Assembly: GCA_963764045.1 (NCBI GenBank)
Contig: CAVXQW010000003.1
Coordinates: 4,647 to 68,646, forward strand
Length of the DNA stretch: 64,000 nt
Reading direction: 5' to 3'
Source of the DNA: an uncultured bacterium
Lineage (GTDB): Bacteria; Desulfobacterota; Deferrimicrobia; Deferrimicrobiales; Deferrimicrobiaceae
The notes below the pieces were generated by a model, which was given only the letters and a program-made list of their open reading frames with translations, had not been told where the DNA came from and searched no databases. Of the stretch, positions 9,459-23,018 are shown one piece after another. The stretch's first letter is position 1; every line of letters begins with the position of its first letter. Made by a program: the position numbers and the translations under genes.

Positions 9459-10623
9459 TCACCTCCCAGGTCGGCGCTTCAGTACCTCGAGGGAATAGAA
9501 GGTGTCCCTCCACCGGACGCCTCCCCGGCGGAGCGTGATAACCGCCGAGCGCCAGAGCGCATAGAGATACGAACATCGCGGCGGCCGGGAGGACGGGAGC
9601 GAGGAGCCACCCGTTCCGCTGGAAGGATGCGAAGTATCCGAAGATCCCGTGCATCAGGAGCACCGAAATGGCGTACCCGGAGACACGGGCGTCGCGGAAG
9701 GAGAGTACCCCCAGGTAGGGGACCGCGTAAAACAGGAATACAAGGACCGTGACGAGGAGCAGGAAGGGGATCGAATACCCGAGCGCGGCAAAACCGTTCT
9801 TCTCGAGCCCACGGATGAATCCCCCCACGCCCTCCTGCCAGCGGAGACGCAGGTGGTCGGAGGCGATCAGGGCCTCCTGTCGGAACCCCGCCTGCTTGAG
9901 CTTCTTTCCGAGCATGAGGTCGTCGGCGACTTCGAGACGGAGGGTTTCGTGGCCGCCGATCGCCTCGTAGGCCGTCCGCCGCAGGAGGTTGAAGGCCCCG
10001 ATGCCGACGTAGACGTCCTTCGACGCCGAACCGGCCGCCCATGCCTTCACCCCCACGATGAAGAGCATCGCGAAGTAGCTTTTCGCGGCGTCCTCCCAGT
10101 AGCCGCCAGGAACGAGGCCGGGCAGGAGGGCCAGGTGATCGAGCTTCCGTGCGAGGAGGTAGCGGACCGCGAGACGGAGGGTGTCCGGGGCGAAAACGAC
10201 GTCGCCATCGGTGAACAGAAGAATCTCCCCATCGGCCAGCCGTGCCCCCGCCTGCATCGCGTGGCACTTCCCCAGCCAACCCTCGGGCAGCTCCGCGATG
10301 TGGAGGGACCGCACCCGCGGCTCTCTTGCCGCCATGCGATCCATGATGGCACCGGTAGCGTCCGTGGACCGGTCGTCCACGGCGATCACCTCGAGATCCG
10401 GATAGTCGAGGTTCGCCAGAGACCTCAGGGCCTCTTCGACCCGCATCGCTTCGTTCCGCGCGGGAACCACCACGGAGACTTTCGGCCACATCGGCGGATC
10501 CTGCAACGCCCCGGCCCGGTCCGCGAGCCTGCTTCCACGGAGAAAACGGATCGTGCGGACCGTGGAATCCGCCCAGACCAAGGCGACGATCCATCCAGTC
10601 GCCAGGAGAAGCCACCAGGCCAT
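9459..10623 (-). CDS. Glycosyltransferase family 2, membrane-bound (frameshift near 9570)
   Basis: VVVPARNE, VDDRSTD, WLGK, FTDGD, EVADD. The natural tail LYALWRSAVITLRRGGVRWRDTFYSL...* is in the shifted frame (stop 9459-9461). Confidence 0.85.
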
Positions 10624-10879: not shown

Positions 10880-11587
10880 CTAGACGTCCGTCAGCAGATG
10901 CGTCTTCGCCAGATCCGCCCACTGGTCGCCGCCAAGGATCCGCGCGATCCCGTCCAGAGGGAGACCGCCGTCCTGCATCACCGGCCCCAGGGCTTCGTGC
11001 CGGATCGGGTGGAGGTTCTCCAGCGAGGTCTCCATCCACGCCTTGGCCACCTTCCCCGAAAGAAGGTTCCGGGTGTCCGCCGCGATCCGGTCGGATTTCA
11101 CCTTGAGCAGCCAGCCCTCCCCGTACGGATCCCGGCTCAGGATCTCGGGGGACCGCAACACCGCCTCGTTCACCGCCACGACCTCGCCATCCACCGGCGA
11201 CAGCATCGGGATGGCCTTGGAATCGACCATGAGGCTCCACCCCTTGTCCCCCTGCCTCAGGCGGGAGCCCACGGCGGGGAGCACGACGGCGTCCACCTTC
11301 CCGATCAGCTTCTGCGCGAAGTCGTCCAGCCCGACCTTCACCAATCGCTGGCGGTTGGGGCTCATGAGGTCCACCTTCATCCAGGTATGCCCCTGGTGGA
11401 AGCCGTACCCCTCGGGGACGCGGAACCATTCGGGAAGGCCGGCAAGCAGGCCCGGGGTCTTTTCCTTCCCGGGAGCGGGCGTCAGGATGTACCGCTGCAG
11501 GGCCAGGAACCCGAAGAAGAACACCGCGGCGATCAGGTACTCGATCCCCTTCGTCGAATAGATGTCTATGAGGCTGAAACCTTCCAT
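10880..11587 (-). CDS. Membrane-anchored GcvH-fold (glycine cleavage H-like) protein 1
   Basis: N-terminal TM helix; GHTW, VKVGLDDFAQKLIG, LSPVDGEVVAVN, DPYGEGWL; C-terminal G..xDGG extension. Confidence 0.85.
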   Translation of the reverse strand: MEGFSLIDIYSTKGIEYLIAAVFFFGFLALQRYILTPAPGKEKTPGLLAGLPEWFRVPEGYGFHQGHTWMKVDLMSPNRQRLVKVGLDDFAQKLIGKVDAVVLPAVGSRLRQGDKGWSLMVDSKAIPMLSPVDGEVVAVNEAVLRSPEILSRDPYGEGWLLKVKSDRIAADTRNLLSGKVAKAWMETSLENLHPIRHEALGPVMQDGGLPLDGIARILGGDQWADLAKTHLLTDV

Positions 11588-12873
11588 CGCACTACCTCCG
11601 CGCCGTCAAGGTTGTTGAGGTTTTTCTCTTCCGACTTGAAGTCCGGGTGCTCTCCGAGGATCGGCATACGGTTGATGACCCACTGGAATACCCAGAGCTC
11701 CATGCTGATGACCGCCAGCGTGATCCAGATCTCCATCCAGGACGGGTAATACCGAACCGCCTCGTACCACTTGAACGCGATCACGGAGATGTTCATCCGG
11801 TTGAGGATCACGCCGAAGGCCGTGAGGAACGCGGTGATCTGGACGAGTTTTATGCTTTGCCTCCGGATGGCGACGACGTAGAGGACGAGGGGAACCAGGG
11901 TGAACCCGGCGACCTCGACGAGATACCAGAGCCCCATCGGGGTGAGGAGCAACCCCAGGTGATGGCCGTGCGTCAGGTCGATCACCTTCAGGAACAGGTA
12001 GGCGGCCATGACGCTGGCCGACCCCTTCGCGAGGCCGAGGAGGATCTTGTTGTGCGACGCCCGATGGGATTCGTCGAGCCGGTCGGAGAAGATCTTGTGC
12101 GTGAACATGCTCTCGATGATGATCAGCGAAAACCCCGCGAACATGCTCGAGATGAAGAACAGGACCGGGATGTTGCTCGAGTACCAGAGGGGATGGATCT
12201 TGGAGGGCGCGGTGAGGAACAGGGCGCCCAGCCCCGCCTGGTGCAGTGTCGACAGCGTCACGCCCAGGATGACGGTGGCGGTGGTCATCTTCTCGATGAT
12301 CCGCCGCGCCTTGACCCATTTCAGCCACTCGGCGATCGCGGGGGAGACCTCGATGAAGAGGCACATGTTGTACAGGAGGAAGTGCCAGGCGACCAGGAAG
12401 AGCACCGACCCGTACCCGAAGTCGTTCCCGATGATGGGATTGACGACGTTCCAGGGGCGTCCCAGGTCGAGCAGGAGGGCGCCGCTGTAGAAGACGTAGG
12501 CCAGAAAACCGTTCAGCACGGTTGCCCGCACGATCGGCTCGTACTTCTTGATCTTCAGGATGTGCACGGCGAAGGTCAGGATGTACGCGCCTCCCGCGAA
12601 GGCGACGCCTGTCACGACGTCGAAGCCGATCCAGATCCCCCAGGGATACGCCTGGGAGAGGTTCGTCACGGCGCCGAGCCCCTTGACGAGACGGATGCCG
12701 ATGAGGATGATCCCGCCCAGGATGATGATCCCGGTGATGATGTTGAACGGCGTCAGGATCTTCCCCTTGGGTTTCAGCTCCTGCCAGAAGAATTGCAGGA
12801 ACCCCTTCAGGGTTCCCGTGTCCGGGGCTGCCGGCGTGCCGGGGATGGGCATCGACTCGATGTTACTCTTCAT
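11566..12873 (-). CDS. NrfD/PsrC family membrane subunit (HybB/HmcC-like)
   Basis: GLGAVTNLSQAYPWGIWIGFDV, LLDLGRPW, STLHQAGLG, about 10 TM helices, YYPSWME. Confidence 0.9.
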   Translation of the reverse strand: MKSNIESMPIPGTPAAPDTGTLKGFLQFFWQELKPKGKILTPFNIITGIIILGGIILIGIRLVKGLGAVTNLSQAYPWGIWIGFDVVTGVAFAGGAYILTFAVHILKIKKYEPIVRATVLNGFLAYVFYSGALLLDLGRPWNVVNPIIGNDFGYGSVLFLVAWHFLLYNMCLFIEVSPAIAEWLKWVKARRIIEKMTTATVILGVTLSTLHQAGLGALFLTAPSKIHPLWYSSNIPVLFFISSMFAGFSLIIIESMFTHKIFSDRLDESHRASHNKILLGLAKGSASVMAAYLFLKVIDLTHGHHLGLLLTPMGLWYLVEVAGFTLVPLVLYVVAIRRQSIKLVQITAFLTAFGVILNRMNISVIAFKWYEAVRYYPSWMEIWITLAVISMELWVFQWVINRMPILGEHPDFKSEEKNLNNLDGAEVVRWKVSAS

Positions 12874-13774
12874 GGTGGTTCTCCTTCCCGCCCTCTTCCT
12901 CTTTGTCGGAAATGAGGTAATTGAAACCGAACAGGACCGCCGGCCAGAGGATGTCCACGAGAGGAACGGAGGACAGGAATCCGGACGTCAGTTCCGGGTA
13001 ATGCTTCGTTCCCAGGTCGGTCCGGAAGGCGAGCTTTTCGAACGGGACGGCCGAGAGGTACATGTAGCCCGTTCCCCCGACTTCATGTTCCCCGTAGATG
13101 TGCGGATAGTACCGGTCCGGGTTCTGGTAGATCCTTTTCTTGGCTTCCTCGATCAGATCCCGCCGCTTTCCGAACAGGGTCGCACCCTCGGGACAGGCTT
13201 CCGCGCACGCGGTCTGTTCCCCCTTCGCCACGCGGTCGGGGCATCCGATGCACTTCTTCACGAACGGCGAAGCCTTGTCGTATTCGAACTTCGGGATATC
13301 GAAGGGGCAGGAAACCATGCAATATCGGCATCCCATGCAGCGATCCTTGTGGTAGACGGTCGGTCCTTCGGGCATCTTCTCCATCGCCTTGCACAGGCAG
13401 GCCGAGGCGCAGGAAGGCTCGGTGCAATGCATGCACTGCTTCCGGACGAAGATCGGCTTCTCCGGGCTCTTCTCGTTCTGGAACCGGTTAACGACAACGT
13501 AGGCGTCCGGGGTCGTATCCCTCTTCTTCTCGAACACGCTCTCGCTCGAAAAGGAAACCTTCGGCGCGGGCAGACTGTTCTGCGCGTTGCACGCCTCCTC
13601 GCAGGCGCGGCAGCCGATGCACTTGGTCGTGTCGATGAGGAGCCCGTAGAACTCCATGCCACCTCCCGAGGTCGTCGGGGTCTGCGCGGTCCGGGCCGTC
13701 TTGGCCCCCCCGGCGAGCAGGATGCCGCCGGCCGCCCCCGCGACCTTCAGGAAGTTCCGTCTGTTGATGCCCAT
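12863..13774 (-). CDS. Tat-exported 4x[4Fe-4S] ferredoxin subunit (HybA/HmcB-like)
   Basis: RRNFLK Tat motif; CIGCRACEEAC, CMHCTEPSCASAC, CMGCRYCMVSCP, CIGC...ACAEACP; YGEHEVGGT; C-terminal TM helix. Confidence 0.92.
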   Translation of the reverse strand: MGINRRNFLKVAGAAGGILLAGGAKTARTAQTPTTSGGGMEFYGLLIDTTKCIGCRACEEACNAQNSLPAPKVSFSSESVFEKKRDTTPDAYVVVNRFQNEKSPEKPIFVRKQCMHCTEPSCASACLCKAMEKMPEGPTVYHKDRCMGCRYCMVSCPFDIPKFEYDKASPFVKKCIGCPDRVAKGEQTACAEACPEGATLFGKRRDLIEEAKKRIYQNPDRYYPHIYGEHEVGGTGYMYLSAVPFEKLAFRTDLGTKHYPELTSGFLSSVPLVDILWPAVLFGFNYLISDKEEEGGKENHHEE

Positions 13775-13801
13775 CTCCCTTTCCTCCCGTGGTATGCGAC
13801 G

Positions 13802-14479
13802 TTAGCGAAAATATTTCCGTATCGCGATCTGCAGGATCTCTCCGTCCATCGTCTCCATGACTCCCTCGGCATGACTCCCCCCGTCCGGCAGGGTGGCCCC
13901 CACTTCCACGGGCACCGCCTGGTGCAGGGTGAGGAACTCGGTGAAACTGCGGGCTTCCCGTTCCAGCCACGCCGCGGCCTCCGCGCCGATCCGGAGCTTC
14001 TTCAGGTCCCGGGAGAGGTTCGACGGCCGGAGCATGAACGCCCATCCCTTCTCGTACGGCTCCTTCCGCGCCGCCGCCGGATCGGCGTTGATCCGCTCGT
14101 TCACCGCGCAGACGACGCCGTCGACGGGGGACACGAACTCGATCCGCTTGCCCGACTGGATGGCGGCGAACGCCGGCTCGCCCTGGCGAAGCGTCGTCCC
14201 GTCCGGGGGAAGCTCGAACCGGTCGACCCTTCCGAGGATCCCCTGCGCGAACCCGTCCAGCCCCACCTGCATGGCGCCGGAGGCATCGAGCTTCCCCCAG
14301 GTGTGGCCGCTGTGGACAAACAGGCCGCCGGGGAGTTCCTGCGCCGCATGGGAGGGGAACAGCGCCGCGGCCGGCTCACGGACGGTCCGGGCTTCCGCCG
14401 CCGCTTTCTCCCTCCGACGGATGGACAGATCCACCGCGACACATCCAAGAACCGTGAGTATGACAAGAAGGACGACCAT
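13802..14479 (-). CDS. Membrane-anchored GcvH-fold protein 2
   Basis: N-terminal hydrophobic helix; HSGHTW, VGLDGFAQGILG, VSPVDGVVCAVN, EPYEKGW, GATLPDGG. Confidence 0.85.
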   Translation of the reverse strand: MVVLLVILTVLGCVAVDLSIRRREKAAAEARTVREPAAALFPSHAAQELPGGLFVHSGHTWGKLDASGAMQVGLDGFAQGILGRVDRFELPPDGTTLRQGEPAFAAIQSGKRIEFVSPVDGVVCAVNERINADPAAARKEPYEKGWAFMLRPSNLSRDLKKLRIGAEAAAWLEREARSFTEFLTLHQAVPVEVGATLPDGGSHAEGVMETMDGEILQIAIRKYFR

Positions 14480-14495
14480 GGCCCACCTCCCGCTC

Positions 14496-15206
14496 TTACC
14501 CTAGAAATTGACTGACGATCTTTCCCCATTGCGCGTCGTTCAACCGGCTGCTGATATCCGTGAGCGCCTCCCCACCGTCCGTCGCCAGCATCCCCAGATC
14601 GGAAGAGAACACCCTCTGCAGCCGCTCGACCTCGCTCTCGTACCATTTCCGGGCGACGTTCTCGTGGTACAACCCCTTCACCGCGTCCCCCTTGAGCTGC
14701 ATGGAGAAGATCCAGCCCTCGGAGTACGGATCGTCGTTGAGGATCGAGGGATCCGCGGCCACCTTCGGGTTGACGGCCTTGATGACCCCGTTGGCGGGGG
14801 ATACCAGGCGGACGGTCCGCGACCCGGAGTGGAGGAGGAAGCAGACGCTGTTCTCCTTCACCGCCACGCCGACGGCGGGCACCGAGGTGCGGTCGATCCT
14901 TCCGATCAGCCGACCCGAAAAGTCGTCGATCCCCACCCGGGCCTCGCCCTCCGCGCCGTCGAACGGGGCGACCCACAGGTGCTTGGGGTGGTAGTAGTAT
15001 TCCGACTGGAGGCGAAATCCCCGTACGTTCTCCATCCCCTTGGCGGTGCCGTGGACCTCGCTGTACAGGGAGCATTCCTCGAAGTCGCAGGTGTTGCAGA
15101 GACCTTCCGAGGAGGACATCCGGTCCACCGGGATCATCTTCGACGGGAACGCCTTGCAGAACGTCACGGTCTTCGTCTCCAGAAAAGGGCACTTCGTCTC
15201 TTTCAT
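14496..15206 (-). CDS. Soluble GcvH-fold protein 3 with Cys-rich N-terminal domain
   Basis: Five Cys in the first 45 aa; YYHPKHLW, RVGIDDF, VSPANGVIKAVN, DDPYSEGW, GMLATDGG. Confidence 0.82.
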   Translation of the reverse strand: MKETKCPFLETKTVTFCKAFPSKMIPVDRMSSSEGLCNTCDFEECSLYSEVHGTAKGMENVRGFRLQSEYYYHPKHLWVAPFDGAEGEARVGIDDFSGRLIGRIDRTSVPAVGVAVKENSVCFLLHSGSRTVRLVSPANGVIKAVNPKVAADPSILNDDPYSEGWIFSMQLKGDAVKGLYHENVARKWYESEVERLQRVFSSDLGMLATDGGEALTDISSRLNDAQWGKIVSQFLG

Positions 15207-15268
15207 CGCTGCACCCCTTCCCTTCTCCTCTGCTGGTTCGGTTCATCTGCCCGACTCCCACCAACGTC

Positions 15269-15349
15269 TTACGTGCGCTCTTCCCGCGGTTTCACCGCGG
15301 CGATGACCGCCAGAACGATGTATGCGACGCCGATCACCAGGTACCCCAT
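15269..15349 (-). CDS. 26-aa single-TM small protein (MGYLVIGVAYIVLAVIAAVKPREERT)
   Basis: Strong RBS GGAGGAGGT 7 nt upstream; first ORF after the sigma54 promoter; below the ORF-track length cutoff. Confidence 0.6.
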   Translation of the reverse strand: MGYLVIGVAYIVLAVIAAVKPREERT

Positions 15350-15396
15350 CGTTCCCACCTCCTCCCGCGGGGACCACTTCCCGCGCTCCTATCTAG

Positions 15397-15412
15397 AGCA
15401 ATGGTTGTGCCA
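15397..15412 (-). promoter_or_regulatory. Sigma54 (RpoN) -24/-12 promoter
   Basis: Minus strand TGGCAC-AACCA-TTGCT, matching the consensus TGGCAC-N5-TTGCW. Confidence 0.85.
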
Positions 15413-15516
15413 GAACCGGTCCCGGACCCCCAACAGCCGCATAACAATCTGTTTATTAAAGGAGATTACTTGCAGGAGGCCCGTCAGGGAATGGAGGAGG
15501 CCGGAAAGTCAGGGAT

Positions 15517-15597
15517 TGTAGAGATTCTTTACACTTCCGGGGTTGGAATGATTACATGTTGAATTTCCTGAGGATTATGGCGTTGCGAAATTCAACA
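15517..15597. promoter_or_regulatory. Candidate upstream activator sequences for the sigma54 activator
   Basis: TGTA-N9-TACA at 15517-15533 and an 11-bp perfect inverted repeat TGTTGAATTTC (15557-15567) / GAAATTCAACA (15587-15597). Confidence 0.5.
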
Positions 15598-15614
15598 GTG
15601 CGTCGAGATTATCA

Positions 15615-16983
15615 TCACCCCTTCGGCGGCGCCCCTTCCTTCTTCAGGTTGAATTTCTTGATTTTGTTGTAGAGGGTGACCCGGTCGATCCCGAGCGCAT
15701 GGGCGGACCGGACGATATTCCATTGGTTTTCGTTCAGAACCACCCGAATGTGCGCCGTCTCGATCTCCTCGAGCGATTTCGTCCTGTGATTCGCGTCGGA
15801 AGTGGTGGACGGGAGGGTGATGTCGGACTCGGTGACGATGTTCCCCTTCGCCACGACCACCGCCCTCTCGATGACGTTCCGGAGCTCCCGCGCGTTCCCG
15901 GGCCAATCGTTGCCCATCAGGATTCTCACGGCGCCTTCGCTGATCCCGCGGATCTCCTTCCCCATCTCGATGTTGAATTTCTCGATGAAGTGGTCGACCA
16001 GAAGCGGGATGTCCTCCCGCCTCTCCCGCAACGGCGGGATGTGGATGGAGATGACGTTCAGGCGATAATAGAGGTCGGCGCGGAAACGCTCCTCCGCGAT
16101 GGCGGCCGCAAGGTCCCGGTTCGTGGCGGCGAGGATCCGCGAGTTGATGGGGATCAGTTGCGATCCGCCGACCCGCCGGAACTCCTTCTGCTCCAGGACG
16201 CGGAGAAGGTCCATCTGCAGCTTCAGGCTGATGTCCCCGATCTCGTCCAGGAAGAGGGTCCCGTCCTGGGCGAGCTCCAGCTTCCCCCTGTTGAGGACGG
16301 TGGCGCCCGTGAAGGCCCCCTTTTCGTGCCCGAAGAGCTCGCTCTCCAGCAGGCTCTCCGTCAGGGAAGCGCAGGACACGGAGATGAACGGCGCGTCCAT
16401 CCTGGGGCTTTCGTCGTGGATCGCCCGCGCGAGAAGCTCCTTCCCCGTCCCGCTCTCGCCCTGGATGAGGACGGTCGAGCTGCTCTTCGCGACGGTCCGC
16501 AGCCAGGTCGAAGATCTCCAGCATCTTCTCGTTCTTGCTGATCATGTCCCTCAGCTTGTACTGCTTCTTGAGCTCCTTCCGCAAAAACAGGTTCTCCTTG
16601 ACGAGCTTGTGATGGTCCACGATCTTCCGGATCGTCAGGGAGATGTCGTCGGGGTTGAACGGTTTGACGAAATAGTCGTAGGCCCCCTTCTTCATCGCAC
16701 TCACGGCGGTGTCGACCGTCGCGTAGGCGGTCATGATGATGACCAGCATCTCGGGCGCCGTCTTGTGGACCTCGTCCATCAGCTGGATTCCGTCCATCCC
16801 GGGCATCTTCAGATCCACGAGCATCAGGTCCCAGTTCCTCTCGGGGAGGCGCTCCAGCGCTTTCCTGCCGCTCTCCACGGCCTCCACGTGATACCCGTCC
16901 TCCTCGAGCCAGCCGGTCAGCGAAGCCCGGACGATTTCCTCGTCGTCCACCACCATGATGTTGACCTTCTTCTCCATCGTCAT
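15615..16983 (-). CDS. Sigma54-dependent response regulator, NtrC family (frameshift near 16500)
   Basis: Receiver ([14 protein letters not shown]), AAA+ with GAFTGA and LFLDEIG, Fis-type [17 protein letters not shown]. The two halves are in different frames. Confidence 0.9.
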
Positions 16984-17534
16984 CCCTGCCTCTCCGTCGC
17001 GGTGTTATTGGCCGCCACGATCGTCTGGCAACCCCTGCAGAAGTCCCGCCCTCTGGTATCCACGTCCACCACGGTGTTCGAAAGGTACATTACGCAATCC
17101 CTCGACGGACAATGAACGAGACCGAACGTGTGCCCCAGCTCGTGGAGGCTTTCCTTGCGAAGCCTCTCCAGGAGCAGCGGCCGATCCGGCATCAATCCGT
17201 AATGCTCCTGTCGGAGCCGGGCGAGCGAAACGACGGCGGCCGTCCCACCCACCTGCGCCTCCCCGAACACGTACGTCAGGATCGGGATGCACAGATCCTT
17301 GTCCGTCACCCCAAGGAGCTTGAGCGCGTCCTGCGGGACGTTCCCGAGCATCTCCTTGAGGATCTTCGTCGAATAATACTGGTTCCGACGGGCCTCGAAG
17401 CTATCGAGGGGGACGGGGATCGGCATCATGGTCCGGACGGTCGCCATGAGGCAATCACCCATCTCTCTCCTCAGCCATTCGAGGATCCCGTGATCCACCG
17501 CCCCGACAGGCCGGATGTAGATGACGTTGCCGAT
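16980..17534 (-). CDS. Archaemetzincin family Zn metalloprotease
   Basis: RNQY, YVFGEA, HELGHTFGLVHC, CVM Met-turn, FCRGC Cys4 site. Start uncertain (GTG 17498 or ATC 17534). Confidence 0.88.
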   Translation of the reverse strand: MGNVIYIRPVGAVDHGILEWLRREMGDCLMATVRTMMPIPVPLDSFEARRNQYYSTKILKEMLGNVPQDALKLLGVTDKDLCIPILTYVFGEAQVGGTAAVVSLARLRQEHYGLMPDRPLLLERLRKESLHELGHTFGLVHCPSRDCVMYLSNTVVDVDTRGRDFCRGCQTIVAANNTATERQG

Positions 17535-17549
17535 GTTCTCCGCTTTCCT

Positions 17550-19148
17550 TTACCCGACGGGCAGAGTTACCCGGAAATCGGTTCCCTTTCCGGGGGCGCT
17601 GTCGATTTCCATCTTGCCGTTGTGGCGGGTCACGATGCCGTTGACGACCGAGAGACCCAACCCGGTCCCCTTCGCTTTTGTCGAGAAAAAGGGATCGAAG
17701 ATCCGGGCGCGGTCTTTCTCCTCGATCCCGACCCCCGTGTCGCGAACGCTTATCGTCACGGTGTTCGTATCCGGGTGGTAATCGGACCGGATCGTCAAGG
17801 TTCCCCCTTCTTCCATGGCTTCGCAGGCGTTGACGAGCAGGTTGAGGAACACCTGCTTCATGTGCGCCGGATCGGCCTGGATCTCCGGCAGGGGGTTCAA
17901 CAGTTTCACCACCACGATATTTCCGAGGCTCAGCTTGTTCGAGATAAGGGCAAGCGACTCGTCCACAACCTTGACGAGGTTCATCGGCTTGCGGGCCGGC
18001 TCCTTCGGCCGCGTGAAATCGAGCAGGTTCTGCACGATGGCGGTCGTCCTCTCGACCTCCCTGCGCATCGTATCAAGATACCCCTTGAATTTTGCGATTT
18101 CCTCCGGCCCGTACTGTCCCTGGGCGATCTTTCTCTCCATGAGCCGGATGTACGTGTAGACGCCGGTAAGCGGGTTGTTGATCTCGTGCGCCACGGTCGC
18201 CGCCAACGCGCCCACCGCGGCAAGCTTCTCCGAATGAAGGAGCTGCGACTGGGTCGCCTTGAGTTGCCGCGTCCGCTCTTCCACCTTGTTCTCCAGGTTC
18301 CGGATCCCCTCCTGGATCTCCTTATGGGCGTTCTGCAGGTTCATGGTCATCTGGTTGAACGACCTCGCCAGGTATCCCATCTCGTCGTTGGTCGTAACGT
18401 CGATGAAATGGTTGAGGTCTCCCCCCGAAATCCGTTTCGTGCCGAGAACAAGCTCCTTGACCGGTCTTTCTATGAAGTGGAAGAGGATGAGAGCGACGAT
18501 GATGAAGATGGCGAATACGGAGACGACGCTCACGACCAGGACCTTGCGGCGCGCCGACGCGATCAGGTTGTCCGCCTCGCTCAGGTCCATGGTGACGTCG
18601 ATCACACCGAGGACCTTCTGCGACCTGGGGTGGGCGTGGCACGCCGCGGAGGAGCACCCCGAATCGTTGTACATGGGATTGATGATCCCGAGAACGCGGT
18701 GGTTCACTCCATGCGGATCTTCGCTGTGATCGGAAAAGAAGATGCGGCTTCGCTCGGACCTCGCCAGCCGATCGAGCGGTCGGGCTTCCGAATGACATTT
18801 GAAGCACGCTTCCGCTTTCTTGTCGACCATCCGGCCGACCTCGCCGGTGTTGTCGCTGGAGAAGAGGATCTTCCCCTCGGAACTGTAGACCCGGACCTTT
18901 TCGATCCCCTCCTGCCGCCCGATCGTCTCCATGATCTTGTAGGCGGCTTCCTTCCGGTTCTCGAGCATGTCGTTCTGGATCGATTTCTTGATCGTCTCGC
19001 TGAGCTGCGAGGCGGTCCGGAGGATCGCATGGTTGAGGTTTTCCCTCTGGATGCTGAGAAAAAGATAGGAAAGGGCGCCGTTGACGATCAGGATCACCCC
19101 GACGACGCTCAGGATGATCTTCAATCCGATGCTATTGTGCCATTTCAT
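17550..19148 (-). CDS. HAMP-domain sensor histidine kinase with periplasmic c-type heme motifs
   Basis: Two TM helices; periplasmic CFKCH and CSSAACH; HAMP; AHEINNPL, NLLVNA, DTGVGI, FFSTK, GTGLGL. Confidence 0.92.
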   Translation of the reverse strand: MKWHNSIGLKIILSVVGVILIVNGALSYLFLSIQRENLNHAILRTASQLSETIKKSIQNDMLENRKEAAYKIMETIGRQEGIEKVRVYSSEGKILFSSDNTGEVGRMVDKKAEACFKCHSEARPLDRLARSERSRIFFSDHSEDPHGVNHRVLGIINPMYNDSGCSSAACHAHPRSQKVLGVIDVTMDLSEADNLIASARRKVLVVSVVSVFAIFIIVALILFHFIERPVKELVLGTKRISGGDLNHFIDVTTNDEMGYLARSFNQMTMNLQNAHKEIQEGIRNLENKVEERTRQLKATQSQLLHSEKLAAVGALAATVAHEINNPLTGVYTYIRLMERKIAQGQYGPEEIAKFKGYLDTMRREVERTTAIVQNLLDFTRPKEPARKPMNLVKVVDESLALISNKLSLGNIVVVKLLNPLPEIQADPAHMKQVFLNLLVNACEAMEEGGTLTIRSDYHPDTNTVTISVRDTGVGIEEKDRARIFDPFFSTKAKGTGLGLSVVNGIVTRHNGKMEIDSAPGKGTDFRVTLPVG

Positions 19149-19876: not shown

Positions 19877-20990
19877 TCAGGACAGAACCTCGACGAAGCT
19901 GTCGAACAGGCGGGGCTCGAACTCGGTGCCGCGGCCCTCTTTCATGATCGACAGGGCCTGTTCCACTTCAAAGGCCGTCTGGTAGCTGCGATAGGTGCGC
20001 AAGGCGTCGTAGACGTCGGCGATCTGCGTCATGTACGAGGCGACGTGCAGCGGCTCCTTGGTGTGGACCTTCGGATAGCCGGTGCGGTTGTACTTGATGT
20101 GATGCTCGAACGCGACGATCATCGGGAGGTCGGTGCCGCAGTCGATCCTCCGGAGGAGTTTCGCACCGTCCGCCGGGTGCCTCTTCACCATATTGAACTC
20201 GTCCATATCCAGCCGGCCGGGCTTGGTCAGGATGTCCGACGGGATCATCTCCTTCCCGATGTCGTGCAGCATGGCCGCCAGCCCTGCCTCGCGAATCCGG
20301 TTCTCGGGGAGACCGATGTGGGACGCCTGCGCCACGACGAGGATGCAGACGTTGAGCGAGTGGGTCACGGTGTAGTCGTCGTGTCCCTGCATGCGGATCA
20401 GCCGGTCGATGAGCATCCCTTCCTGGCGGAGCCCTTTCATGATGGAGGAGACGATGTCGCGACCTTCTTCCACCCCGGACCTCTTCCGTTCGGTGACCAT
20501 CGACACGAGGACGTTCTTCAGAACGTCCGCCGCGCCGGCCATGAAACCGGACGGCCGGGACGCGGGGCTCAGCCCGTGCGAGACGGCGCCGGCCGAGTCC
20601 GCCCCCTCGATCCTCCCGTAGACGATCGATTCCCAGATCTGATCCGATGGAGAGCCGGTCCCTGCCGCGAGGAAGTGGACGAAGCGCTTCAACTCCCCGA
20701 AGGTGATCCCCTGGGAGATCAGGATCTTCTCGATTCCCTTCTCCCGCATCCGTTCGATCAGCCGGGTGAGCGTGGGGTTCGGTTCCACGAACGGGGTCTC
20801 GTCCACCACGACGTGATCGCTGAAAAAACCGATGTTCAGCCCGCGTAATCGCTCCGCCTCGGACTGGGCGCGGCGGTGGAGGCGGACCAGGATCTCCTGG
20901 ACGCGCGGGTGGTTTTCGGGGTAGGCCGCCGCGCTCTGGATCGCCAACGCCAGGTCGGAAACGACCGGGAAAAGGGTATTCCGTCGTCAT
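19877..20990 (-). CDS. HD-GYP domain phosphodiesterase (frameshift close to the start)
   Basis: YTVTHSLNV, LHDIGK, EHH, TGYP, ADVYDALRTYRSY. ATG at 20990 overlaps the upstream stop and is one base out of frame. Confidence 0.88.
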
Positions 20991-23018
20991 TTTTTTGCCC
21001 TCAATGCATCGAGAAGAGCGGCGCAATGCTTCCGGACCTTCGTCCGGTTGCACTCCGCCCCGCGGTGGAGGAGGGCGAACCCCCTCGTGTTGCCGCACTG
21101 GAAGATGGCATTGGCGGCGTCGATCCGGAGCGCCTCCTCCTTGGCGGATTGCAGGAACGTATCGTTGAGGAGGATCTTCCCGAGGAAGGGGACCGAATCG
21201 GCGGCCCGCAGCTGTCCGAGGGCCAGGATGGCCTCCTTCCTCACCAGGAAGTCTTTGCGGTCGAGCATCCGGATCAGGTCGGGAACGACGGAAGGGTCTC
21301 CGATCCGTCCGAGGATGAGGCACAGGTTCCGAACGAAATACCAGTGCGGATCGTCGAGTTTCTCCAGGATCGCGGGGATCGCTTCCGCGTCGAATCGGGC
21401 GGCGAGGGAAAGGAGAAGTTTCCGGTTTCCCTGATCCGGTTCCATCAGCAGACGGTCGAGGAAGTCCCCGATCGACACCCCGACGAAGGAGACGAGGATC
21501 TCCTCGATCCGATCCTTTTCCAGTTTCGATGCGGCGGGCGAAAGATAGAGATCGATCATGTGAGCGAAATCCACCTCGTCGAACACGAGGGCGATCGAGG
21601 CCTTCCTGCTCTCCGGGGCGTTCCGGTGCACCGACGTCAAGGTGGAAAGCATCGTCTTCAGGAGGGGGAGCTCCCTGCGCGAAATCAGGTTGGGGATGAT
21701 TTTCCGGATCTCCTCGAGCAGTTCCAGGAACTCTCCCTCGGCTTCTTCTTCCGCGAGCAGTTCCAGCAGAACGCCGGCTCCCTTGAGGTGGAGGTTCTTC
21801 TCCTCGAATTCCGCCATGACGGCGGGGTCGGCCTGCGGCCTTCCTTCGGCCGTCGCGTTCGTCGCCGCGTCGAGGTTCGACAGCTTCTCCATGAGGCGGG
21901 AGTGGTCCTGTGCGAGGTAGTTTCCCTCGCTCCGCTGCAGCAACAGCCGCTCGATGGTTTCCCACGTCATCTGGGCGTAGTAGTTCTTCGTGCGGACGCT
22001 CTCGCGGGCCCGCTCCTGGACCGCGGGAAGGAGCGAGCCGTCCCGGTTCCTTTCGCCCGCGATGACTTCGAAGATCTTCCGGAACCGGGAACCGCTCTTC
22101 TCTTCCACGGTCACGAGGTTGGCCAGCATGTCGAGGAACTCGTCGTCCGAATCGGCTCCCGTCAGCGACCGGACGATGTCGGCCTCCGCGGGATCACCAC
22201 CGCTGTCGGCGCCGTCGACCGCATCCTTGGCCCCCGCGTCGAGGGACAGGATGACCGCGACCCTTTGCTCAACCGGAAGCCGGCGCAATGCGTTTCCCAG
22301 GCGGGCCAGGACCCGCTGGATCATTTCGGGGGACATCACGTCGGTGTGCGGATTCCGGGCCGGTCTCCGTGGGGGACGCTTTCCCGGCGGCGGCATTCAC
22401 CCGCTGCAGGATGGCCGGGATCATCTCGGGAGGGACCTGGAAATTCCCGGGAAGATCCTCGTCTCCTCCCCCGGTGGACACGTTCTCCGTGAGGATCATC
22501 CGCCAGAGCTCGTCCTCCCTGCTGGAGGATGGTGTCTCCTCCCCCGGGAGGAGGATTCTTCGCGAGAGAACTTCCTTGTAGTTGTACGGGTAGACTCCGA
22601 TCCCCCGCACCCCCTCGCCCTTCAGGATCTCGTCGAGCTTCCCTCCCCCCTTTTCCACGCGGAGCCGCTGGAGGGAGAGGAAGAATACGAGGAGTTCCTG
22701 CGGTGTGGCCTCGTTGGAGAAGTCGAGGGTAGCGACCTGCTGCAGGAAGAGCTCGGAGGTGAAGCTGCGGACGAGGCTGTTGCTGTTGCCGAGGAACACG
22801 TTCTGGTAAAGGATCTTGTCCTTGGCGATGCCGAGCAGAAGATGGCCGGACGCCTCCCCGGCCACGATGTCCGCGAGGTTCCGGTGGAGCTTCTCCACGC
22901 GGCCCGCGAGCGAAGGGTGCCCCGCCTGGTAGAGCGAGATCCAGTTGAACGTCAGGGCCATTTCCGCCACGAGTCGCTCGATCCGGCGAACATCCGGCCC
23001 TTCCATCGTAAGCTCCAT
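20987..23018 (-). CDS. HEAT-repeat domain protein (frameshift near 22370)
   Basis: C-terminal LDDPHWYFVRNLCLILGRIG, VRKEAILALG repeats; N-terminal half is in ORF 22269-23081. Confidence 0.78.

Follow-up and report, generated by a model that had tools for sequence, protein, structure and literature searches.

What are three proteins with the fold of the glycine cleavage H protein (GcvH) doing beside a membrane electron-transfer pair, in a gene cluster that holds no other part of the glycine cleavage system? The cluster lies on the minus strand of a window of 64,000 nucleotides (nt), by which we mean the whole stretch of DNA analysed, from a genome of Candidatus Deferrimicrobiaceae (2.73 Mb in 18 contigs, 75% complete), and was read from open reading frame (ORF) translations together with Pfam and NCBIfam scans. 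It comprises a sensor histidine kinase, an archaemetzincin and an NtrC-type activator, followed by a small membrane peptide, three GcvH-like proteins (the soluble GcvH_Cys and the membrane-anchored GcvH_TM1 and GcvH_TM2), an HmcB-like iron-sulfur (Fe-S) protein and an HmcC-like protein of the NrfD family (table 1); the latter two are called HmcB and HmcC below and, as a pair, HmcBC. Close copies of GcvH_Cys are found in metagenome-assembled genomes of Candidatus Deferrimicrobiaceae and Deferrimicrobium, and the cluster is a real, conserved and apparently undescribed gene set of anaerobic soil and sediment bacteria. With a probability that we put at about one half (0.5), it encodes a haem-sensed, sigma-54-driven quinone module like Nhc or Qrc that carries cytoplasmic, non-lipoylated GcvH-fold proteins on which the archaemetzincin acts.

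From the genes, domains, motifs, conservation and linkage described below we infer the physical complex, the direction of electron flow, the signal and the roles of the GcvH-fold proteins and the protease as follows. The Fe-S protein would sit on the cofactor-less NrfD-type subunit to form a periplasm-facing module that exchanges electrons between menaquinone and the pool of cytochromes in the periplasm, served in this genome by soluble periplasmic cytochromes encoded elsewhere. GcvH_TM2, and probably GcvH_TM1 and the peptide, would be tethered beside HmcC as extra subunits by single helices with outward-facing N-termini, and GcvH_Cys would be soluble and bind a metal or an Fe-S cluster through its four cysteines. 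The archaemetzincin, genomically tied to the GcvH-like proteins, would most likely process or control them, and the kinase, with a periplasmic haem c, would read the periplasmic redox or ligand state and switch the operon on via NtrC.

Conservation of the Gene Cluster

The original prediction, made from the sequence of the window alone, was that these genes form one conserved unit, and synteny supports this in the family, in other families and in metagenomes. Among 27 Deferrimicrobiaceae loci (GcvH_Cys at least 71% identical), 17 keep the structural order of the window and three more keep it until the contig ends; the rest include two with GcvH_TM2 before HmcB, one with HmcBC inverted and two that are cut short. 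The kinase, archaemetzincin and NtrC genes lie directly upstream in at least 15 of the 27.

For other families, 201 genomes of the phylum were searched with a profile of the extended GcvH-like protein, hereafter GcvHx, which consists of a GcvH core and a C-terminal extension of ~45 residues. The 167 matching genomes include ordinary GcvH at weaker scores and are not a count of the system. Twenty regions around the best places were fetched (L061-L080), and 13 of them hold the kinase, NtrC, archaemetzincin, two or three GcvHx, HmcB and HmcC, in shuffled order and at 41-60% identity. Judged by their labels, these 13 full clusters span at least six further families, and at least seven families in all keep the set intact. 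A metagenome scan with an alignment of GcvH_TM2 orthologues kept 80 contigs, 52 of which hold HmcB/C; where both flanks measure 2.5 kb or more, which is so in 18 contigs, the count is 17. Nine long-flank contigs carry HmcBC (9/9), kinase/NtrC (9/9) and archaemetzincin (6/9). Two look-ups also hinted at GcvHx-like clusters in the Acidobacteriota, Bacteroidota and Ignavibacteriota.

GcvH-Fold Proteins

All three GcvH-like proteins of the window match PF01597 at E values of 7e-18 to 7e-20 and score 56.8-68.8 bits against TIGR00527, under its equivalog cut-off of 115.85. AlphaFold2 models of GcvH_Cys and GcvH_TM2 have mean pLDDT (predicted local distance difference test) values of 85.4 and 80.9, respectively, the latter model consisting of a helix (residues 7-35) and then the GcvH core. 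A Foldseek search with GcvH_Cys returned 1onl_A as the best match (TM-score 0.89, normalised by target length) and the GcvH-L structure 5a35 at 0.83; every match at E <= 0.001 was GcvH or GcvH-L, and none was found for the cysteine module or the C-terminal extension. GcvHx keeps the GcvH motifs H-x-W, G-x-DD, P-x-x-G-x-V-x-x-N and DPY-x-x-GW, and its extension reads W-x-x-E-x-x-x-L ... LG-x-T-x-x-DGG ... W-x-x-x-x-x-x-F. The family is large: 3821 representative clusters match at E <= 1e-3, and the count is 1091 at the stricter E <= 1e-10.

The N-termini of GcvHx vary and include a membrane helix, a CPFLE-type module of four cysteines, a second four-cysteine module and a receiver domain; by a crude hydrophobicity test, 66 of 141 representatives have a single N-terminal membrane helix. 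GcvH_Cys carries an N-terminal C-x10-C-x19-C-x7-C module, and the cysteine-rich GcvH-like protein of the original prediction is thereby confirmed, with four conserved cysteines and not the five first counted. One representative, P0133, reads as a tandem GcvHx duplicate. In GcvH_TM2 a T-K-x-x-x-Y motif (TKGxEY) stands at the start of the helix, with T12, K13 and Y17 invariant. Many GcvH_TM2 orthologues (P0319-P0417) carry the precomputed Pfam tag PF28260.1, so a Pfam family, possibly a domain of unknown function, may already exist for part of this protein. A search for longer homologues of GcvH_TM2 returned only five, of 413-423 residues, with GCV_H alone (one also with PF28260). The positive-inside rule predicts an N-out/C-in course for the helices of GcvH_TM1, GcvH_TM2 and the peptide, which would place all of the GcvH domains in the cytoplasm.

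In six cytochrome-bearing loci GcvH_TM1 is replaced by a membrane protein of 72-102 residues that has only the helix and an LG-L-T-L-A-DGGE tail, so helix and tail may be the working parts there. One such gene lies between GcvH_Cys and HmcB at L062:8891-9199(+), with counterparts in L061, L063, L064, L067 and L071.

Redox Pair and Cytochrome Partner

The HmcB protein has a twin-arginine signal, 16 cysteines in four cluster motifs and a C-terminal anchor, scoring 19.1 against 16.7 required for TIGR01409 and matching Fer4_11. The pair had been described as HybA/HybB-like; this description holds, with the Hmc models fitting best and the Hyb models second, all below their equivalog cut-offs. The Fe-S protein scores 356 bits against the HmcB model NF045715 (E 1.3e-106, cut-off 420) and 237 bits against the HybA model NF008134 (cut-off 263). 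Its NrfD partner reaches 54.6 bits against PF03916 (cut-off 25.8), 412 bits against the HmcC model NF045714 (E 2.5e-123, cut-off 550) and 255 bits against the HybB model NF008133 (cut-off 450), and many of its charged residues are invariant among 22 orthologues. The two genes overlap by 11 nt.

GcvH_TM2 is probably an extra subunit beside HmcC. Its gene begins within that of HmcC, with an overlap of 22 nt, and a structure prediction of the pair, an analysis that the original prediction had proposed for the whole set of products, was classed as weak support, with a score of 0.42 against 0.01 for the best of three controls. Of 80 solved complexes 58 reached the mark applied, and of 110 mismatched pairs two did, scores of 0.60 or less that reached it coming from seven of the 80 solved complexes and from both passing mismatches. 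Agreement between the runs was 50% of contacts or more, and the pLDDT of the partner was 69 or higher.

Between 10880 and 19226 there is no gene for a multihaem cytochrome, a cytochrome b or a CCG-domain protein, and the cluster had been taken to be without a catalytic or redox partner. This does not hold for its relatives: a tetrahaem Cytochrom_CIII protein of ~120-150 residues is encoded next to HmcC in six of the 13 full clusters of other families, and a four-haem protein follows GcvH_TM2 in some Deferrimicrobiaceae. The cytochrome subunit is missing in this copy rather than never present. A partner merely lost here had been named as an observation that would count against a new system, and the finding goes half of the way, the partner being frequent without being universal. 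As far as the available text of a review of NrfD proteins goes, and as generally understood, Qrc- and Nhc-type complexes are cytochrome c:quinone oxidoreductases without a further catalytic subunit (PMC8076601). Since the clusters can carry a cytochrome and Qrc and Nhc need no other catalytic subunit, we read the module as Nhc/Qrc-like. Separately, two further proteins are encoded beside five full clusters (L062:4544-7132(-), L061, L064, L067 and L071): a membrane protein of the cytochrome b561 type, and a ~655-residue multihaem cytochrome that has weak EF-hand matches below the cut-off.

Regulatory Genes and Promoter

The kinase probably starts at 19148, where its orthologues begin. Between two predicted helices its periplasmic part holds one CxxCH and one C-x4-CH motif; A-E-x-C-x-x-C-H is kept in all 23 sequences (the window and 22 orthologues) and C-x4-C-H in 21 of them. 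No Pfam sensor domain was found above the cut-off. The conservation of CxxCH fits covalently bound haem, as far as a motif can indicate. The sigma-54 promoter sequence is the sole exact match in the 64 kb of the window, where 0.02 were expected and two of 100 shuffles reached one. Of 27 sequences, 21 have a sigma-54-like site ~200 nt upstream of GcvH_Cys, and the 20 fetched regions contain 12 sites with no more than one mismatch, nine of them immediately upstream of genes of the cluster. The promoter match and the conserved kinase motif favour a sigma-54-driven unit paired with the kinase, subject to the broken activator frame described below.

A hydrophobic ORF is open 141-152 nt upstream of GcvH_Cys in 25 of the 27 sequences and changes conservatively. 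The predicted 26-residue membrane peptide is thus present, with a start that may lie three codons earlier, at a GTG (29 residues).

The predicted NtrC activator stands as regards its domains, with receiver, AAA+ and helix-turn-helix domains all found and a GAFTGA stretch visible in the translation, and is qualified as regards its reading frame, which is split by one extra T at window position 16501. This T is absent from all 14 aligned relatives and from the covering contigs of three RNA-library runs. A second probable one-base indel lies near 9570 in a glycosyltransferase ORF (10623-9307, minus strand), judged against L014, the sole relative compared: past ~9570 the ORF becomes rich in proline, glycine and arginine and enters the convergent gene of an outer-membrane factor, and the C-terminus in L014 is sensible. 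The second indel, ~7 kb from the first, suggests assembly error rather than decay, and for both indels assembly error is likelier than a true pseudogene.

Among public sequencing runs none contained half of the sampled words, the best share being 0.40. Contigs from the three RNA libraries, 88-99% alike, cover all of the genes (for example, a 2076-nt contig over 11460-13446); they are sequences of relatives and do not represent transcription of this organism, and their depth is not comparable between genes.

Archaemetzincin

The enzyme of the window has the motif HELGH..G..HC-x4-C-x-M-x16-CxxC and retains the catalytic glutamate and four cysteines. The family motif is given as HEXXHXXGXXHCX4CXMX17CXXC in the available part of the source (PMC3427221), and the window enzyme differs from it in a spacer of 16 rather than 17 residues before CxxC. 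The stop codon of its gene overlaps the NtrC start, coupling the two translationally.

PF07998 was found in 74 of the 201 genomes, and an archaemetzincin is encoded in 14 of the 20 fetched GcvHx regions. By a hand tally, at least 45 of the 94 PF07998 places listed have a listed GcvHx place no more than 5 kb away, in many cases tail to tail, a lower bound with 150 of the 389 GcvHx places among those listed. The top-scoring PF07998 places are mostly unlinked to GcvHx, so two subgroups seem to exist. Archaemetzincin genes tail to tail or in line with GcvHx and with no HmcBC nearby were seen at, for example, G074:C74, G141:C31, G154:C16 and G140:C11.

Structures of archaemetzincins have been solved and, to our knowledge, no substrate has been identified. 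A conserved GcvHx gene partner is a direct and testable lead on such substrates. In the text available to us the physiological substrates are described as unknown and the archaeal enzymes as inactive on standard substrates (PMC3427221).

Function of the Cluster and Alternatives

Several observations weigh against an Nhc/Qrc-like module that carries GcvHx. The NtrC gene of this assembly is frameshifted, and if the frameshift is real the operon would be silent here. The prediction for HmcC and GcvH_TM2 passed weakly and was based on alignments that we built ourselves. A search of the 75%-complete genome for the cluster-type cytochrome c3 gave no close homologue (best E 2.3e-7). Many of the counted loci and contigs come from related organisms, and the counts thus describe stable linkage and not separate events. 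Most directly, GcvHx pairs without HmcBC occur in seven of the 20 fetched regions and also in L109, and two paralogous Deferrimicrobiaceae loci, L007 and L017, have three GcvH-like genes without HmcBC. Most of the regions without HmcBC adjoin kinase/NtrC genes. GcvHx is therefore not simply an Hmc subunit, and the cluster may be two coupled modules, since GcvHx, archaemetzincin and kinase/NtrC also occur together in the absence of HmcBC; the self-contained membrane complex originally proposed is not supported.

These regions bring forward another explanation, which we consider possible if somewhat unlikely, namely that GcvHx and the archaemetzincin are a cytoplasmic feedback or sensing device for the kinase and NtrC, a signalling and proteolysis module of which HmcBC is one cargo. 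GcvHx proteins with a four-cysteine module or a membrane tether would attach to the activator or the kinase, to be removed by the protease, a logic like that of PspA/B/C with PspF. It would account for the GcvHx pairs that stand by kinase/NtrC genes directly behind sigma-54 sites in L075, L077, L078 and L079, and for the fusions of GcvHx to receiver domains: P0128 combines a receiver domain, a cysteine module and GcvHx, and L085:2233-3585(-) combines a receiver domain, GCV_H and Fer4_8, with neighbours read by eye as HdrB-like and HdrA-like. The coupling of the archaemetzincin to NtrC here and its place next to GcvHx elsewhere point the same way, as does the small protein with a helix and an LG-T-x-DGG tail in the place of GcvH_TM1 in six loci, which a recognition or cleavage motif would explain. 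CarG, an archaemetzincin homologue of Myxococcus, is described in the available text as working within a transcription factor complex (PMC3427221). Against such a device, the adjacency of GcvH_TM2 to HmcC, the overlap of their genes and the invariant membrane motif point to a structural tie, and the fusions of GcvHx to Hdr/Mvh-like proteins, Fe-S proteins and an acetyl-CoA synthetase look more like an accessory of enzymes than a regulator of NtrC.

At L070:6173-8815(-), within a full cluster, an acetyl-CoA synthetase (ACAS_N, AMP-binding, AMP-binding_C) continues into GcvHx, an arrangement from one genome for which a missed stop codon is possible. L081:4604-7522(-) and L083:3136-6102(+), of 972 and 988 residues, join FlpD/MvhD, Fer4 and Molydop_binding to a C-terminal GcvHx and lie beside a gene for an HdrA-like protein and an ORF that by eye is MetF-like. 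A similar 997-residue ORF at L082:5047-8040(-) aligns over the GcvHx domain, and at L086:2535-3809(-) Fer2_4, Fer4 and GCV_H are joined next to genes read by eye as NuoF-like and 2-oxoacid:ferredoxin-oxidoreductase-like. Given the fusions, the GcvHx domain looks like an accessory in general use among redox enzymes and signalling proteins. Tentatively, and with odds that we hold to be rather low, GcvHx and archaemetzincin may form a new and widespread cytoplasmic module of anaerobes, in which the non-lipoylated GcvHx is a docking or sensing adaptor on redox enzymes such as HmcBC, Hdr/Mvh-like complexes and acetyl-CoA synthetase, and the archaemetzincin is its dedicated protease, cutting site-specifically in the LG-T-x-DGG tail and controlled by sigma-54 and a two-component system. 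If true, such an adaptor with its dedicated protease would put the H-protein fold to a new use and give the archaemetzincins of bacteria their first physiological substrate and role.

A further possibility, raised in the original prediction alongside a structural role, is that the H folds are carriers; they would bear lipoate or another swinging group and move sulfur or electrons between cytoplasmic partners and the membrane module, in the manner of LbpA with sHdr. The fold is confirmed as that of GcvH, window GcvH_TM1 and GcvH_TM2 have a lysine adjoining the hairpin tip, and elsewhere in the phylum there are genomes in which GcvH-like domains are joined to Hdr/Mvh-like and ferredoxin-like modules. 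This lysine is, however, offset by one residue: lipoyl-K64 of Escherichia coli aligns to Ser123 of GcvH_TM2, with the lysine one residue later, and in the three long Hdr/Mvh-type fusions it is again out of register. Among 144 sequences the hairpin column is arginine in 63, lysine in 28 and another residue in 53; GcvH_Cys has arginine there, and 10 of 25 aligned GcvH_TM2 orthologues have E, V, D or I. The lipoyl lysine is thus not conserved, which makes a role as lipoate carrier unlikely. The cluster holds no gcvP/T and no lipoate ligase or synthase gene, as predicted for the former and for the ligase; GCV_T has no match in the 75%-complete genome, where the sole BPL_LplA_LipB match is on a different contig. 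NrfD subunits, according to the available part of the review, have no cofactor to pass electrons across the membrane to the cytoplasm (PMC8076601). We accordingly hold carrier subunits to be improbable.

That the cluster is a degenerate and unused Hmc or Hyb operon, which lost its cytochrome, cytochrome b and cytoplasmic subunits and has GcvH-like neighbours by chance, would fit the sub-cut-off HmcB and HmcC scores and the lack of a cytochrome gene and broken NtrC frame of this copy, but is very hard to credit with the set intact in at least seven families and many metagenome contigs, all structural ORFs of the window open, and a second probable indel 7 kb off that suggests assembly errors.

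Gene Layout and Neighbouring Genes

The genes and the promoter lie on the minus strand where the original prediction had placed them, as translations and domain scans confirm. They fall into two tight groups, from kinase to NtrC and from peptide to GcvH_TM2, separated by a 200-nt gap that holds the sigma-54 site. Intergenic gaps in the second group range from -22 to +62 nt, making a single operon plausible.

Table 1. The kinase-to-GcvH_TM2 cluster, with positions given as those of the window
Feature	Position	Strand	Matches and remarks
Sensor histidine kinase	17550..19148	-	Pfam HAMP, HisKA, HATPase_c; ORF open up to 19226
Archaemetzincin-family Zn metalloprotease, cytoplasmic	16980..17498	-	NF033823 156.4 bits (cut-off 145), PF07998 E 4.6e-26
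NtrC-type sigma-54 activator	15615..16983	-	Response_reg, Sigma54_activat, AAA_lid_14, HTH_8; two frames
Sigma-54 (-24/-12) promoter	15397..15412	-	Exact TGGCAC-N5-TTGCT
Small single-pass membrane peptide, 26 residues	15269..15349	-	29 residues if GTG at 15358 is used
GcvH_Cys, soluble, 236 residues	14496..15206	-	Pfam GCV_H E 6.7e-18
GcvH_TM1, 225 residues, membrane anchor	13802..14479	-	Pfam GCV_H E 6.1e-20
Tat-exported 4x[4Fe-4S] protein (HmcB/HybA-like), 303 residues	12863..13774	-	NF045715, NF008134, TIGR01409, Fer4_11
NrfD-family membrane protein (HmcC/HybB-like), 435 residues	11566..12873	-	PF03916, NF045714, NF008133
GcvH_TM2, membrane-anchored, 235 residues	10880..11587	-	Pfam GCV_H E 7.4e-20

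The kinase is preceded by ORFs read by eye as HD-GYP-like and HEAT-repeat-like (window 19877-22396, minus strand), which are kept in position in L003, L004, L009 and L010 and partly in L001, and not in other families. Two neighbours in the HmcBC-less copy L007 were considered and dropped. One, an ORF of 457 residues after GcvH_TM2, has no Pfam match and is antisense to a homologue of an L062 ORF read by eye as an aminotransferase. The other, a CoA-disulfide-reductase/rhodanese gene divergently upstream of the peptide (L007:7629-9737(-)), was dropped as a lead towards sulfur; it is full-length in no other locus, with N-terminal matches of 54-57 residues only in L002 and L017.

Comparison with Known Systems

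Full-text searches of the literature gave no description of this system, in keeping with the claim that it is undescribed; supplementary tables, which lie outside such searches, could hold the cluster. No paper was found by full-text search to contain both "archaemetzincin" and "glycine cleavage". Term searches of the available text found GcvH and glycine cleavage absent from the NrfD review (PMC8076601), a Dissulfuribacter proteome (PMC13490349), the sigma-54 regulome of Desulfovibrio vulgaris (PMC4641369) and a comparison of sigma-54 regulons (PMC12316311), and the accessible text of the Deferrimicrobium genome paper mentions glycine cleavage only as catabolism (PMC9386147). Wherever GcvHx occurs it is annotated as "glycine cleavage system protein H", a label that leads reconstructions of metabolism in soil and sediment anaerobes astray. 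Quinone coupling in anaerobic respiration depends mainly on modules of the NrfC/NrfD type, and a haem-sensing kinase driving such a module would bear on the way in which bacteria that cycle iron and sulfur adjust their electron flow to redox conditions.

Similar regulatory logic is found in Geobacter, where CbcBA, an inner-membrane quinone-linked module, is switched by the sigma-54 activator BccR under particular redox conditions. The likeness is one of logic only, the module there consisting of cytochromes b and c and here of Fe-S and NrfD proteins, and CbcBA is not known to come with GcvH-fold proteins or a protease. Like the archaemetzincins AmzA and AMZ1/2, the window enzyme has the extended zinc motif with four cysteines, here in a bacterial subgroup linked to GcvHx, and unlike CarG it keeps the catalytic glutamate. 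GcvHx shares its fold and motifs with GcvH, with LbpA of the sHdr system and with GcvH-L of the Firmicutes, but lacks the conserved lipoyl lysine, adds the ~45-residue DGG extension and N-terminal anchors or four-cysteine modules, and in the window cluster has no GcvT/P, lipoate ligase, sirtuin or macrodomain genes nearby.

The redox pair resembles HybA/HybB of E. coli hydrogenase 2, the second-best models, in which a periplasmic 4x[4Fe-4S] protein sits on a 10-helix NrfD-type subunit according to the part of the review available (PMC8076601); the window cluster differs in having no hydrogenase genes and in scoring below 263 and 450. Closer still are the Hmc complex of Desulfovibrio (HmcABCDEF) and Nhc and Qrc, the latter two named as such complexes in the same text (PMC8076601). 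The comparison takes their subunit lists as commonly given. All share with the cluster a Tat-exported four-cluster Fe-S protein and an NrfD-type subunit, and a c3-type multihaem cytochrome joins the pair in some relatives and six of the 13 other-family clusters. Relative to Hmc, the cluster lacks the 16-haem HmcA, the HmcE-type cytochrome b and the HdrD-like HmcF. H-protein-fold subunits or a protease are found in none of the complexes in the review text available (PMC8076601), and it is these that set the cluster apart from Hmc, Nhc and Qrc, to which it adds a kinase/NtrC pair of its own, an archaemetzincin and two or three proteins with the GcvH fold.

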